Below are positions 26,476-31,740 of a DNA stretch of 40,446 bases, in pieces. Where the stretch lies: the IMG/VR virus record IMGVR_UViG_2630968766_000009; one strand, written 5' to 3'. Numbering within the stretch: the stretch's first letter is position 1; each line of letters opens with the position of its first letter. This DNA comes from a virus. Its lineage: Duplodnaviria; Heunggongvirae; Uroviricota; Caudoviricetes. Below the pieces are notes generated by a model. The model was not told the origin of the DNA. It ran no database searches and was given only the letters and a program-made list of their open reading frames with translations. The translations under genes were made by a program, and so were the position numbers.

Positions 26476-27108
26476 TCAGGCCTTGGAAAGCTTGAGCTTA
26501 CCCTTTACGTGCAGAGTGTTAATTAACCAGAAGGCCCCGAGCAAACACATACAATGCGCGCTAGTGACTAACTTACAAATACGAATGCGATTTTCTTCAA
26601 GATCAGGAGGTAGCTCTTTCATCAACGCTATAGCGTAGATTCCATCCTTGAGAATTGGCTCAACAACTTGATGCACGTAGCCACCATGGTTAATCTCTTC
26701 TAACTTTATGTTTTTAATCGATTCTGCGAGTTTATCAACCTCTTCATTTGTAATTACATATTCAATTTTATGAGCGTACTTGTTACGTATTGTGTTGAGC
26801 TCAGCCATAGCGTCTGCAAGCGAGACAGGAAGCCCTAACAGAACTGCGGCAGACAGCTTTGACGCAAAATACTTATAGCTTCTTATCGAATTGTATTTTT
26901 CAGAGCCATCAGGTCGTAAGTTTTCAATAACAACCCGAAGAAAGTCCTCATGAATTAGCATCAATTTTAATAGCGCGGCAGACTCATCCTCATAGTTAGC
27001 TATCGAGGCCATTTTATTAAGATCTAGAAAATAGCCAAAGTCATGATCGATTTTCACGTAGTTACCCTCATCCGTTGTTGGACTTTGTTCAATTCGAGAG
27101 AATTTCAT
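26476..27108 (-). CDS. Hypothetical protein with a HEPN-like R-x4-H motif (candidate toxin / abortive-infection effector)
   Basis: 210-aa ORF in AT-rich DNA; motif ELNTIRNKYAHK (RNxxAH) typical of HEPN RNase active sites; hydrophobic C-terminal segment LLGAFWLINTL. Start overlaps the upstream small ORF stop (ATGA). Confidence 0.55.
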   Translation of the reverse strand: MKFSRIEQSPTTDEGNYVKIDHDFGYFLDLNKMASIANYEDESAALLKLMLIHEDFLRVVIENLRPDGSEKYNSIRSYKYFASKLSAAVLLGLPVSLADAMAELNTIRNKYAHKIEYVITNEEVDKLAESIKNIKLEEINHGGYVHQVVEPILKDGIYAIALMKELPPDLEENRIRICKLVTSAHCMCLLGAFWLINTLHVKGKLKLSKA

Positions 27109-27443: not shown

Positions 27444-28067
27444 TTACTGCAACCTTTCCTGACGGAAATATGGTAACACTCGACTCCACTTATCATCCTG
27501 CCAAGGCTGGAATTTTACATGTGCCGTTTCTCTGGCGAGGATTGCTCGCGCTCTGTTGAGTATCTGGGGATATTCTTGCTCGATAGAAGTAAAGCGACCG
27601 GCTTCGCGGTGCTCCGCGACCTGAAGAAGTGGAGTAACGTTCTGGCAGGCAGTTAACATCACATCACTTGCTCGCCATAACCAAGCAAGTGTGCAAAGTT
27701 CGTTATCAGTGAATTGTTTTGTGATTGGGGATTGTTGAATTTCTCGATCGAGAATATCCAGCACCCAGCGGCGGAACTCTTTGGCTACAGGAGTTCGTGC
27801 AAACATGGCGATCAGGTGAGCGCCGCGCAGGGAGAATACACGCACTTTTTTTCTGTAATTTCCTGAGGTCACTGATTCGATGACCTGAGTCATACCGCTA
27901 GTAAATTCGTCGGCATTCTGGTTGAACAGATTAGTTACTGACTTTGCGCTTTTGTACTGTAAAGCGTTCGCGATTTCGGTAGAGGTCAGCCAGATTCCTG
28001 TCATGCCAGCAACCGGTACAATCGCTTTACCTTGGAAGTTCAGATCTGATCTTGCTACAATATTCAT
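27444..28067 (-). CDS. Bro-N domain antirepressor-like protein
   Basis: Frame 27444-28148; N-terminal LNFQGKAIVPVAGMTGIWLTSTEIANALQY and ...SLRGAHLIAMFARTPVAKEFRRWVLDIL match the Bro-N pattern. Start chosen at MNIVAR (AGGA RBS); the alternative ATG at 28148 overlaps the upstream RHH gene. Confidence 0.65.
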   Translation of the reverse strand: MNIVARSDLNFQGKAIVPVAGMTGIWLTSTEIANALQYKSAKSVTNLFNQNADEFTSGMTQVIESVTSGNYRKKVRVFSLRGAHLIAMFARTPVAKEFRRWVLDILDREIQQSPITKQFTDNELCTLAWLWRASDVMLTACQNVTPLLQVAEHREAGRFTSIEQEYPQILNRARAILARETAHVKFQPWQDDKWSRVLPYFRQERLQ

Positions 28068-28137
28068 GTCGATATTTCCTACGCGGTTATTTTCGATAGA
28101 AGCCCCTGAGGTTGCCGCCAACGGGGCTTCGCTGTTT

Positions 28138-28296
28138 TTAGCGAGCATGTATCCGCTCTCTAAATTTCAATGCCCACACAAGCGCCTGAACAATAGCGGC
28201 GTTCTCAGACATCCCTTCCTCCTGTGCAATTCGCTTGAATTCATCCTTCACATTTTGCGGATAGCGAAGGGTGATTTTTACTTCTTTCTTTTCCAT
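28138..28296 (-). CDS. Arc-like ribbon-helix-helix repressor
   Basis: Frame trimmed to MEKKEVKITLRYPQNVKDEFKRIAQEEGMSENAAIVQALVWALKF... (52 aa); AGGAG RBS 7 nt upstream; RHH beta-strand and helix pattern. Confidence 0.6.
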   Translation of the reverse strand: MEKKEVKITLRYPQNVKDEFKRIAQEEGMSENAAIVQALVWALKFRERIHAR

Positions 28297-28396
28297 TGAT
28301 ATCTCCTTGTGAGGCCATAATGACACCATGAGGCCATAATGCCACCATTGAATTGATGTGGCAATATGGCACCATTCATTTTTTTGGGGATTTCCA
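28297..28396. promoter_or_regulatory. Divergent promoter/operator region with tandem 19-bp repeats
   Basis: gaggccataatgacaccat and gaggccataatgccaccat in tandem, then a third partial copy (gcaatatggcaccat), between the two divergently transcribed RHH genes. Confidence 0.4.
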
Positions 28397-28699
28397 ATGG
28401 CTGATAAACAAGTAAAAAACTATGATAAGTTTAACCTCCGTTTCCCTGATGGGATGCGTGAAGCTATAGCTGAACGTGCCAAGCGTAATGGCCGCTCAAT
28501 GAACTCAGAAATCGTGCAAATACTTGAAGATGCGCTTTATACAGACAGTGCACGAGTGTTCACCGTTGAAGATGAAGTGAATCACTCAGGGAATGTAGCA
28601 ATAGATCCCGTGCAACTTGAGAAATTAATGGAAAAAGTGATAAACAAGGCATTAATGGGCTTTACAGGATCGCCTGCAAAAAAAATTGATAAAAAATAA
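28397..28699 (+). CDS. Mnt/Arc-like ribbon-helix-helix repressor
   Basis: Frame trimmed to MADKQVKNYDKFNLRFPDGMREAIAERAKRNGRSMNSEIVQILEDAL..., close to the P22 Arc/Mnt RHH motif (FNLRxP...NGRSxNSEI), with about 50 extra C-terminal residues. Confidence 0.65.
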   Translation: MADKQVKNYDKFNLRFPDGMREAIAERAKRNGRSMNSEIVQILEDALYTDSARVFTVEDEVNHSGNVAIDPVQLEKLMEKVINKALMGFTGSPAKKIDKK

Positions 28700-28738
28700 A
28701 AAAATTATTAGAAACTTCTGCTATATGACTAAGGATAA

Positions 28739-29221
28739 ATGATGAGTAAATTTGATCGTTATTTACAAAGAGAAATTCTGGCTTTAGCTATTGATGCCTA
28801 CCCTGCTTATATTGGTCATAAACACTCTAAAATTCCAGCCAGCTATGAGTTATTAAAAAATGCCAAAGAAGATTTGGTGTATCCTAATATACATTACTTG
28901 CATGAACACAGCTTAATAAATTTCGATAAGATAGGATATAGAAATAACAACAGTAATCCCTTAGCATGGGTAAAAGCAACCTCTCACGGCATTGATTTCG
29001 TTCAGCAGGATGGAGGCCTTTCTGCCATTCTAAACGTCAAAACAATCAGGTTTCATAAAGACACTATAGTTGTACTGGAAGACCTCATAGCGATTTCAAA
29101 TATGAATGATACTGATAAAGAAAAGGCTAAATCTATTCTTTCTGAATTACCAGTTGATGCAATTAAAACAGTTGTACAAACACTTACAACTACAGCTCTA
29201 AATGCGTTGCTAAAATCATAA
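28739..29221 (+). CDS. Hypothetical protein (160 aa), AT-rich, downstream of the Mnt-like gene
   Basis: ORF begins 40 nt after the Mnt-like stop with an AAGGA RBS; no domain recognised. Confidence 0.45.
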   Translation: MMSKFDRYLQREILALAIDAYPAYIGHKHSKIPASYELLKNAKEDLVYPNIHYLHEHSLINFDKIGYRNNNSNPLAWVKATSHGIDFVQQDGGLSAILNVKTIRFHKDTIVVLEDLIAISNMNDTDKEKAKSILSELPVDAIKTVVQTLTTTALNALLKS

Positions 29222-29366: not shown

Positions 29367-29789
29367 TTAAGATGTAATACGGTAAGTTGAAGTATTTTCT
29401 CCTTTATAACAGTTCAAAACATTAAATTTATTGACCAATTTGACCATGCCAGAATTTACGTTTACCACTACCATTTCAACAACTGGCAGTTTCTTAAGCA
29501 ATGAAGAAATTACTTGAAATCCTATTGATTTTCCCTGCATGCTTTTAGCTATATGAATTTCATGCAAAAATATGTAACCTTCACGAGGGATTGATATATC
29601 CAAATTCATATATTCAATCTCTACATACCCAACTAAATAACCTTGGTGCTTTATAAAATAGATATTCTGCACATCATTGATTTCATAAACTTTTTGGCTC
29701 CAGCCATAACTAGAACGGTAGGTATTTAACGTTATAAGTTTTTTATCATCAGGTAGATTACAAGAAGCAAACTTAACAAAATTAACCAT
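29367..29789 (-). CDS. GNAT-family acetyltransferase-like protein
   Basis: 140-aa ORF in very AT-rich DNA; segment IFLHEIHIAKSMQGKSIGFQVISSLLKKL resembles GNAT motif A (R/Q-G-K-G-I-G with one substitution). Confidence 0.45.
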   Translation of the reverse strand: MVNFVKFASCNLPDDKKLITLNTYRSSYGWSQKVYEINDVQNIYFIKHQGYLVGYVEIEYMNLDISIPREGYIFLHEIHIAKSMQGKSIGFQVISSLLKKLPVVEMVVVNVNSGMVKLVNKFNVLNCYKGENTSTYRITS

Positions 29790-30814: not shown

Positions 30815-31740
30815 AAATCCACCCCGTAAATCCAGTCAGTGTTTGTCAGGTCGAGTTTTGGTTTGCTGGCTATCATGCCTGCCTGTTGCTTGTTACGGTT
30901 GATTTCGAGTTGGGTCCACTTGTCGCGGAGTTTGGCCGGACTTAGCACGTTACCGGACCAGAAGTTGTCCTGGCATGCCCAGCGGAAAAGCACGCACATG
31001 TCGCGGTGGTTACGTCCGTCACGTTCACGCATCAGGCGGATATCGTTAGCCCACCCTGCAAAATTCGGTTTTCTGGCTGATGGTGCGATGGTCTTCACCA
31101 TGTCAAACATCCACTCTGCGGCGGTCAGGTCTTCTGCTGTCCCCCACTTGCTGCCGCTCTGAATTGCAGCATCTGGTTTCACCACAGGAAGATCGTTTTC
31201 TGGTTGGTCAGAGGATTCGCCAGAATTCTCGGACGAAAAAGGTTTTATATTGTCTTTTGTTAGTTTGTCTTTTGTGTTTACCTGATTCGGGTAAACGCCT
31301 TTACCTGATTTGGGTAAACTTTTCTTACCTGATTCAGGTAAATTTACCTCTTTCAGGTAAACTTTATTTTTCTTACCTGATTCGGGTAATGTTGACCATT
31401 CACTGACCACATTATTAATACCGATATTCCGCCCGCTCTGAATCAAAATCCCACGCTTTACCAGAACACTTTTTGCAGCAGAACACTTGTGCGGTAATAT
31501 CCCGGTCAATCCGGACAGTTGCTCGTTGCTCACCCAATCCAGTTTTTTATTAAAGCCATATGTTTTGCGCATGACAGCCAGGAAGACCAGAAGCTGGTGC
31601 TGTGTTAATCCGGCCAGCATCACAGCTTCCAGCAACTCATTTGCAATGCGCGTATAACCATCATCGAGATCTGCCACGCGCGGCTCCTTTTGTGCCGCAT
31701 CCGGCACTGGAAAATTGAATATCTCAGCAGTGTTTGCCAT
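30811..31740 (-). CDS. O: Replication initiator protein O
   Basis: Frame 30811-31830; start chosen at MANTAEIFNF... (ATG 31738-31740) because GGGAGGAATT lies just upstream. Internal LPESGKK repeats are encoded by the iterons; the C-terminal part is lambda O-like. Confidence 0.85.
   Translation of the reverse strand: MANTAEIFNFPVPDAAQKEPRVADLDDGYTRIANELLEAVMLAGLTQHQLLVFLAVMRKTYGFNKKLDWVSNEQLSGLTGILPHKCSAAKSVLVKRGILIQSGRNIGINNVVSEWSTLPESGKKNKVYLKEVNLPESGKKSLPKSGKGVYPNQVNTKDKLTKDNIKPFSSENSGESSDQPENDLPVVKPDAAIQSGSKWGTAEDLTAAEWMFDMVKTIAPSARKPNFAGWANDIRLMRERDGRNHRDMCVLFRWACQDNFWSGNVLSPAKLRDKWTQLEINRNKQQAGMIASKPKLDLTNTDWIYGVDL
31277..31391. repeat. Replication origin iterons (inside O) with adjacent AT-rich region
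   Basis: Five direct repeats of about 18 bp: ttacctgattcgggtaaa, ttacctgatttgggtaaa, ttacctgattcaggtaaa, ttacctctttcaggtaaa, ttacctgattcgggtaat. The AT-rich tract lies at 31230-31276. Confidence 0.6.

Follow-up and report, generated by a model that had tools for sequence, protein, structure and literature searches.

The spacer between two divergent RHH genes in the 40,446-bp stretch of viral DNA analyzed here (the window) contains three related repeats, R1, R2 and R3. They probably form the operators of a secondary immunity switch of the immI type (mnt / arc-sar-ant), which an E. coli lambdoid prophage carries as a cassette in its nin region. Judging from its sequence, the cassette most likely adds one more member to the immI kind already known, related to the well-studied switch of phage P22 and with a different operator design. 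The initial annotation had read the repeats as repressor-binding sites, and three sequence observations support that reading: a promoter match, the conservation of R2 and R3, and the way in which the sites covary with the residues of the Mnt-like protein that read DNA. The features discussed below are collected in Table 1.

Table 1. Features of the cassette and of its spacer; positions are those of the window.
Feature	Position	Strand	Description
Antirepressor gene, BRO-N + P22AR_C	27444..28148	-	Annotated start 28148; by P22 homology the start may be ATG 28067
sar-like antisense RNA (putative)	28069..28133	+	Opposite the ant ribosome-binding region, at the arc/ant junction
Small Arc-like RHH gene, 52 aa	28138..28296	-	MEKKEVKITLRYP...; first gene of the antirepressor operon
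R1, putative operator copy 1	28311..28329	+	GAGGCCATAATGACACCAT; 13-bp core 28314-28326
R2, putative operator copy 2	28330..28348	+	GAGGCCATAATGCCACCAT; core 28333-28345; includes the minus-strand promoter -10
Predicted Pant-like promoter of the arc-ant operon	28336..28364	-	-35 TTGCCA (28364-28359), 17 bp, TG-extended -10 CATTAT (28341-28336)
Candidate Pmnt-like promoter (weak)	28339..28367	+	-35 ATGCCA (28339-28344), 17 bp, TG-extended -10 CAATAT (28362-28367)
R3, putative operator copy 3	28355..28375	-	Inverted 13-bp core GCCATATTGCCAC, 28358-28370, 12/13
Run of 7 T	28379..28385	+	Between R3 and the Mnt-like ribosome-binding site; 6 T columns invariant in 18 variants
Mnt-like RHH repressor gene, 100 aa	28397..28699	+	N-arm and beta-strand MADKQVKNYDKFNLRFP, RHH helices, linker, C-terminal helix

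Genes flanking the array

The array lies in 28297-28396, which is exactly the 100-bp intergenic spacer between the two genes. These had been described as divergent RHH genes, and both products score above the curated cut-off of the Pfam Arc family (PF03869), which confirms that description. The small Arc-like protein matches the family with an E-value of 1.5e-4 (22 bits, with the cut-off at 20.4), Arc chains in the PDB with E-values of 2e-4 to 1e-3, and PHROG 582, Arc-like repressor, with an E-value of 2e-9; the RefSeq annotation of an identical locus concurs. The Mnt-like protein matches Pfam Arc with an E-value of 9e-20. Its best PDB match is AmrZ (E 2.7e-8), followed by Mnt itself (1MNT, E 1.7e-7), and Arc is also matched; its identity with P22 mnt is 46% over residues 2-51 (E 3e-6). 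A single-sequence AF2 model of the protein is of low confidence (pLDDT 51), so that its secondary structure alone is usable: it places the RHH helices at residues 18-31 and 35-49, followed by a linker and a C-terminal helix at residues 71-90. On this model the C-terminal helix could mediate dimer-of-dimers assembly.

The third gene of the cassette encodes an antirepressor, with matches to P22AR_C (E 4e-16) and BRO-N (E 4e-9) in Pfam and to PHROG 245, anti-repressor Ant (E 9e-54). Its annotated start overlaps the arc stop codon and gives the protein 27 more residues (MLAKNSEAPLAATSGASIENNRVGNID), whose codons lie in the sar region, and the downstream ATG at 28067 is preceded by an AGGAAA ribosome-binding site. 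In all of the relatives the ant frame continues without a stop from 28148 through the sar region, and in P22 it is closed, which leaves both 28148 and 28067 as possible starts.

A partition or centromere reading of the locus, with RHH proteins of the ParG or omega type, was rejected; the cassette has no ATPase gene, and the labels that suggest such a role are annotation errors. P22 mnt is labelled "partition protein ATPase" in RefSeq NC_002371.2, PHROGs 795 and 2685, which are families of Mnt homologues, have the same label, and the error is spreading to other phage records.

Several neighboring genes belong to the surroundings of the cassette. Directly downstream of the Mnt-like gene, a 160-aa ORF (28739-29221, plus strand) has no match in Pfam or PADLOC and falls in PHROG 3983, of unknown function. 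By analogy with orf59a and sieA, which lie downstream of P22 mnt, it could be co-expressed with the repressor in lysogens. Two accessory genes flank the cassette, between the ren remnant and ninB: a 210-aa protein (26476-27108, minus strand) with weak matches to DUF4145 and HEPN_Swt1 (E 0.01-0.05) and membership in PHROG 5712 (unknown function), and a 140-aa GNAT acetyltransferase (29367-29789, minus strand). Farther away, the replication O-like gene contains tandem repeats of 23 and 19 bp at 31277-31366 (TTTACCTGATTCGGGTAAACGCC and similar), which resemble lambdoid origin iterons.

The repeat array

R1 and R2 abut head to tail, and position 13 (A/C) is the only one at which they are unlike. 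In the output of Tandem Repeats Finder the pair appears as 28310-28348, with a period of 19, 2.1 copies, 95% matches and a score of 71. When the 19-mer was searched for at up to 3 mismatches, R1 and R2 were the only matches in the 40,446 bp; 0.04 matches were expected from shuffled sequence, and none of 100 shuffles contained two. Chance is no explanation for the repeats, which are real and non-random, and the two back-to-back 19-bp copies with one mismatch stand as the initial annotation gave them.

That annotation also had a third, partial copy following the pair. The copy exists; it does not follow directly but begins 8 bp past R2, and it is better described as an inverted core with 12 of 13 positions matching. 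Read in the direct orientation, it runs from 28357 to 28375 (TGTGGCAATATGGCACCAT) with 12/19 identity and includes ATGNCACCAT, a 10-mer whose three occurrences in the window all fall within this array; in this orientation ATGGCACCAT (28366-28375) is common to R3 and the other copies. Read inverted, the core GCCATAATGCCAC matches at 12 of 13 positions on the minus strand at 28358-28370. An unbiased search for repeated 13-mers likewise picks GCCATAATGMCAC at 28314 and 28333 on the plus strand and at 28358 on the minus strand. These three are the only places in the window where the core occurs at up to 1 mismatch, and no further operator copies, as a sign of a regulon, were found elsewhere in the window at that threshold. 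Two matches at 2 mismatches (3570 and 31736) are within chance expectation. On the sequence, the array is best read as a direct tandem of R1 and R2 with an inverted R3, the centers lying at about 28320, 28339 and 28364, so that R1 and R2 are spaced by 19 bp and R3 follows 25 bp further on.

Two blocks, GGCCA and TG-N-CAC, are conserved in R1 and R2, while the three bases between them vary freely. The two blocks lie about 11 bp apart in each 19-bp unit, an arrangement that would fit one dimer-of-dimers site per unit, as for Arc and Mnt. Sites of the window type are only weakly symmetric (GAGGC-N6-GCCAC), whereas those of most relatives, and P22 Omnt, are clear palindromes. The initial annotation had called the sites cooperative. 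A center-to-center distance of 19 bp is about 1.8 helical turns and does not put R1 and R2 on one face of the DNA, so that cooperativity is not evident from the geometry.

Other descriptions of the repeat unit were considered and discarded. Palindromic readings of the 19-mer (CATAATG, ATGNCACCAT, and GCCAC-N12-GTGGC between R2 and R3) are not conserved in the variants of Edwardsiella phage GF-2 or of the Stx phages. An internal 8-bp sub-repeat resembling a met-box (GSCAHHAT, twice per unit) does not correspond to the conserved blocks, which are GGCCA and TGnCAC.

Predicted promoters and the putative sar-like RNA

The predicted Pant-like promoter is the sole strong sigma-70 match in the spacer (9 of 12 positions, plus the TG). 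From its -10 to the arc ATG the distance is 39 nt, the same as for the annotated Pant of P22, and its position is kept within a few bases in PhiR5_1, GF-2, Stx2a_WGPS6, Z1323CEC0009 and SPN3UB. Transcription on the minus strand would start near 28329. On this predicted promoter, the -35 falls in R3, the -10 in R2 and the start region (approximately +1 to +19) in R1.

A promoter on the plus strand, for the Mnt-like gene, is harder to place, and the candidates are weak and ambiguous. The Pmnt-like candidate comes from our own consensus scan and scores below the threshold of the promoter tool; it lies 29 nt from the Mnt-like ATG, versus 27 nt in P22, and its -10, like the -35 hexamer of the minus-strand promoter, is contained in R3. 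A family-conserved TTGAAT (28349-28354) could serve as an alternative -35 but has a poor -10. Use of this hexamer, or of TTGCGT, as the plus-strand -35 was rejected for the window type: good -10s follow it in SPN3UB and at loci L012 and L013, and none is acceptable at 16-18 bp in the window type. The earlier statement that the sites overlap divergent promoters is supported on the minus strand, by the sigma-70 match at the position of P22 Pant, and has only weak candidates behind it on the plus strand.

The putative sar-like RNA is a full-length match to Rfam RF00262 with 32.8 bits (E 3.3e-4), which is below the gathering score of 43. P22, as a positive control, gives 97.8 bits, and SPN3UB gives 48 bits, above gathering; the family matches at the homologous place in all six of the related cassettes that were fetched. 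A predicted plus-strand promoter (TTGGAA at 28032-28037, 18 bp, TACAAT at 28056-28061) ends 7 nt upstream of the RNA. At the 3' end, folding predicts a GC-rich terminator hairpin, GAAGCCCC...GGGGCTTC, which is followed by a T-run.

A separate run of T residues lies in the spacer beyond R3. A run of 6-8 T is kept in all enterobacterial variants (at homologous positions in L001, L004, L005 and L006), and the bases around it vary. Its role may be that of a U-rich leader, or it may act as an A-tract upstream of the minus-strand -35.

Distribution of the cassette

Fourteen complete E. coli chromosomes contain, at 100% identity, the 651-bp stretch 28100-28750 in which the spacer and the two RHH genes lie; there the cassette is located in a lambdoid prophage between a ren remnant, beside replication gene P, and ninB/ybcN. 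Strain SCU-113 has this stretch at 100% identity. Matches to the region occur in 337 of 5,426 complete E. coli genomes. The cassette is mobile, and close relatives of its three-gene unit, all with the same spacer layout, are found at other places. In Escherichia phage PhiR5_1 the relative is likewise in the nin region, in GF-2 it lies between baseplate genes, and tail genes L and K flank it in many Stx-converting phages and in O157 prophages. Salmonella phage SPN3UB also carries one.

The homologous cassettes of the Stx-converting phages (2851, YYZ-2008, 1717 and Stx2a_WGPS6), GF-2, SPN3UB and PhiR5_1, known from annotation, have the same three genes and the same operator layout. PhiR5_1 and GF-2 keep the 19-bp tandem pair, and in the Stx phages R2 and R3 are almost unchanged; SPN3UB has a different site sequence. 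The related cassettes also vary in small Arc type, in the Ant body, and in which domain the Mnt-like protein has at its C-terminus. A literature search for this cassette or its operators returned only descriptions based on P22.

Two of the loci collected, L008 and L012, come from large contigs in an assembly that bears the label Chryseobacterium sp. 18061; they are near-identical to enterobacterial cassettes, and the assembly is probably mislabelled or contaminated. Among the alpha- and betaproteobacterial loci (L014-L076), many pair the Mnt-like gene with a second divergent gene of Arc/Mnt type. This pairing was seen by eye; automatic selection of upstream divergent ORFs, run on the 71 genome loci, gave noisy output. 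The same loci have a conserved TTGCGTCAAG / TTGACGTCAA between operator copies that resembles two back-to-back -35 boxes, a promoter geometry that differs from that of P22.

Conservation of the array

In a phylogenetic footprint of 18 distinct variants of the window type, we counted the alignment columns that were invariant. The proportion was 84% in R3, 63% in R2 and 42% in R1; it was 0% in the leader between the arc ATG and R1 and 60% in the first 16 codons of the Mnt-like gene. R2 and R3 are therefore at least as conserved as the adjacent coding sequence, while the neighboring leader is unconserved. In GF-2, identity over the flanking genes is down to about 76%, yet both tandem copies and R3 are retained.

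Which protein reads the sites

Relatives of the Mnt-like protein were gathered from 71 loci in bacterial genomes and 80 in viral contigs, giving approximately 150 cassettes. Over 77 loci, a 13-bp word upstream of the Mnt-like gene recurs in a mean of 3.0 copies, versus 1.9 in control regions of the same loci. Most sites upstream of the relatives are palindromes. Site type goes with the N-arm and beta-strand that the Mnt-like protein has (N, V, M or T at residue 13), and in these ~150 loci five site types map one-to-one onto five types of N-arm and beta-strand (Table 2), with no exception among the 40 distinct viral variants. The remoter types behave alike; QYIVR, for example, goes with TATCGCCTAGTGCGATA.

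Table 2. Types of N-arm and beta-strand in the Mnt-like proteins and the sites found with them.
Protein type	Site type	Distinct viral variants
KQVK.Y.KF-N-[LV]R (N-type)	GGCCA-N3-TG-N-CAC (window type)	24, in addition to the window, PhiR5_1 and GF-2
KF-V-[LV]R (V-type)	ATGGC-N5-GCCAT	10
KF-M-[LV]R (M-type)	TGTCACCGTGACA	6
PSQ.QDKF-N-LR	GGGGCCAAGTTAACA / TTAATTTGACAC	
PSQ.QDKF-T-VR	AGGCAAATTGCCT	

The Mnt-like proteins of the Stx phages and of Z1323CEC0009 differ only by D10E, N13V and L14V, with many synonymous differences in the DNA, and all three sites are of a different type in the two. The type of the small Arc behaves otherwise. One type, [VA][KR]TTLRYP, occurs with three site types: with the window type in GF-2, with ATGGC-N5-GCCAT in Z1323CEC0009 and L008, and with AGGCAAATTGCCT in L017. 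Conversely, window-type R2 and R3 occur with three small Arc types (VKITLRYP, IKLNLRLP and ARTTLRYP). Since the sites follow the N-arm and beta-strand of the Mnt-like protein and not the type of the small Arc, we assign the repeats to the Mnt-like repressor. The initial annotation had placed repressor-binding sites between the divergent RHH genes; covariation supports such sites for the Mnt-like protein, and for the small Arc-like protein no covariation was seen.

The beta-strand alone is not sufficient for specificity. An identical strand, DKFNLRFP, combined with another N-terminal arm in SPN3UB, L012 and L013, goes with different central site sequences, so that the N-terminal arm must matter too. 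R3 is 22 bp from the Mnt-like ATG, and physical linkage could partly account for the covariation. In a search for an operator of the small Arc's own, cassettes that share a small Arc but differ in the Mnt-like protein, and the reverse, were compared, and no element was found that tracked the small Arc type. The small Arc may share or overlap sites of the array.

Alternative explanations

The repeats could instead be operators with which the small Arc-like protein autoregulates arc-ant, the Mnt-like protein binding elsewhere or only at R3. The location of R1 and R2 directly upstream of the small Arc gene would suit such a role, as would the fact that P22 Arc binds inside the Pant core promoter, and R1 is the most diverged site in the Stx phages, whose small Arc is of another type. 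However, the lack of any fixed pairing between small Arc types and site types described above, in both directions, argues against this arrangement, which we consider improbable. A further proposal, in which both RHH proteins use the array, has the Mnt-like protein at R1, in the position of Omnt, and the small Arc at 28339-28359, in the position of Oarc, on a site that spans the spacer CATTGAATTGAT and reaches into R2 at its right end and R3 at its left end. These positions do correspond to Omnt and Oarc of P22; inverted pentamers, GCCAC...GTGGC, flank the spacer, and CATTGA is invariant in the 18 variants. The near-identity of R1 and R2 (18/19) speaks against a division of labor, in that one protein should bind both. 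Moreover, GF-2, with a close relative of the small Arc, does not keep the GCCAC/GTGGC symmetry (GATAGC), and the small Arc type has no sequence element that tracks it. We give this proposal, too, only a slim chance.

The tandem copies might also have no repressor role and be duplicated promoter elements, with two sets of -10 and -35, or a neutral slippage duplication. Each repeat does contain a TG-extended, -10-like CATTAT on the minus strand, and a second, weaker promoter can be drawn as GTGGCA-17-CATTAT with its -10 in R1. Yet the -10-like hexamer of R1 is not conserved, being CATTGT in PhiR5_1 and absent in the Stx phages, while the flanking GGCCA and TGnCAC are. Furthermore, three-site arrays of unlike sequence, many of them without promoter-like hexamers, lie upstream of Mnt-like genes in alpha-, beta- and gammaproteobacteria, and these arrays follow the DNA-reading residues of the Mnt-like protein. 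We regard promoter duplication or slippage as highly improbable.

Proposed mechanism and its significance

With the Mnt-like protein as the reader of the array, the switch would work as follows. In a lysogen, the 100-aa repressor would bind R1, R2 and R3, probably as a dimer of dimers held together by the C-terminal helix. Occupation of the -35, the -10 and the start region by R3-, R2- and R1-bound protein would turn the Pant-like promoter off and keep arc-ant silent, and the antirepressor would then be unable to inactivate the main repressor of the prophage. As R2 and R3 would also overlap the weak divergent promoter of the Mnt-like gene, the repressor should regulate its own synthesis. In the absence of the repressor, as on infection, the Pant-like promoter would fire, after which the small Arc-like protein and the sar-like antisense RNA would limit the output of antirepressor, as they do in P22. 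We infer the binding, the oligomeric state, the transcription start sites and the regulatory logic of the switch from the comparisons described above.

A more demanding version combines two statements, that the Mnt-like protein alone occupies all three sites and that a code formed by residue 13 and the N-arm sets interchangeable immunity types. Their conjunction is a tentative proposal, and we would not expect both parts to hold. If they did, a single protein would do the work for which P22 uses Mnt at Omnt as well as Arc at Oarc, leaving the small Arc to some other target or role. Across siphoviruses, myoviruses and prophages, immunity types would be free to recombine with various Arc, Ant and C-terminal modules, and the N13V/L14V pair that separates the Stx phages from Z1323CEC0009 would be a ready-made specificity switch for DNA reading by RHH proteins.

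Antirepressor cassettes decide whether prophages stay silent, and relatives of this one are carried by many Stx-converting phages. With the operator and its repressor known, induction by way of the antirepressor would become accessible, as would cross-talk among prophages resident in one cell. The naturally matched variants of protein and site are usable for the study of how RHH proteins read DNA.

Comparison with other RHH systems and with P22 immI

The best PDB match to the Mnt-like protein (DKFVVRLPEGMRE...RSMNSEI) is AmrZ of Pseudomonas aeruginosa (3QOQ), which has an RHH domain with an N-terminal arm and a C-terminal oligomerization region. Unlike the Mnt-like protein, AmrZ is a chromosomal global regulator that acts outside any antirepressor switch. 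RHH proteins also bind arrays of short direct repeats in the met-boxes of MetJ and the heptads of the omega repressor, where the repeat units are 7-8 bp long and take one dimer each. The combination of an RHH protein with adjacent repeats in direct orientation is common to those systems and the present one; the unit here, however, is 19 bp long with its two conserved blocks well separated.

The closest comparison is with P22 immI, in which two repressors and the sar antisense RNA control ant and which has been described as a mobile "ant moron" (PMC2629481). The RefSeq record of P22 annotates ant, sar, arc, Omnt, Oarc with the overlapping Pant and Pmnt, and mnt. Gene order and orientation are the same in the two cassettes, with an Mnt-type gene divergent from the ant operon, and the Mnt-type, Arc-type and Ant proteins are homologous. 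A sar-like antisense RNA is predicted at the arc/ant junction in the window as well, although its score here is below the Rfam gathering score. The spacers are similar in size (100 bp here and 93 bp in P22), the predicted Pant-like promoter is as far from the arc ATG as P22 Pant is, and, measured from that codon, R1 falls where the 17-bp Omnt palindrome does.

The differences are mainly in the operators. P22 has one palindromic Omnt (AGGTCCACCGTGGACCT) and one distinct Oarc, whereas the window has three related sites that are unrelated in sequence to either, and no recognizable separate Arc operator. The cassette lies in the lambdoid nin region and not beside the tailspike gene, as in P22; the ant frame is open across the sar region; and the C-terminal region of the Mnt-like protein has no sequence relationship with that of Mnt. 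The three-site array lowers the identity of the operator design with P22 but not the similarity of the mechanism, and because that mechanism would follow the P22 paradigm, the cassette adds detail to the immI switches rather than a new principle.
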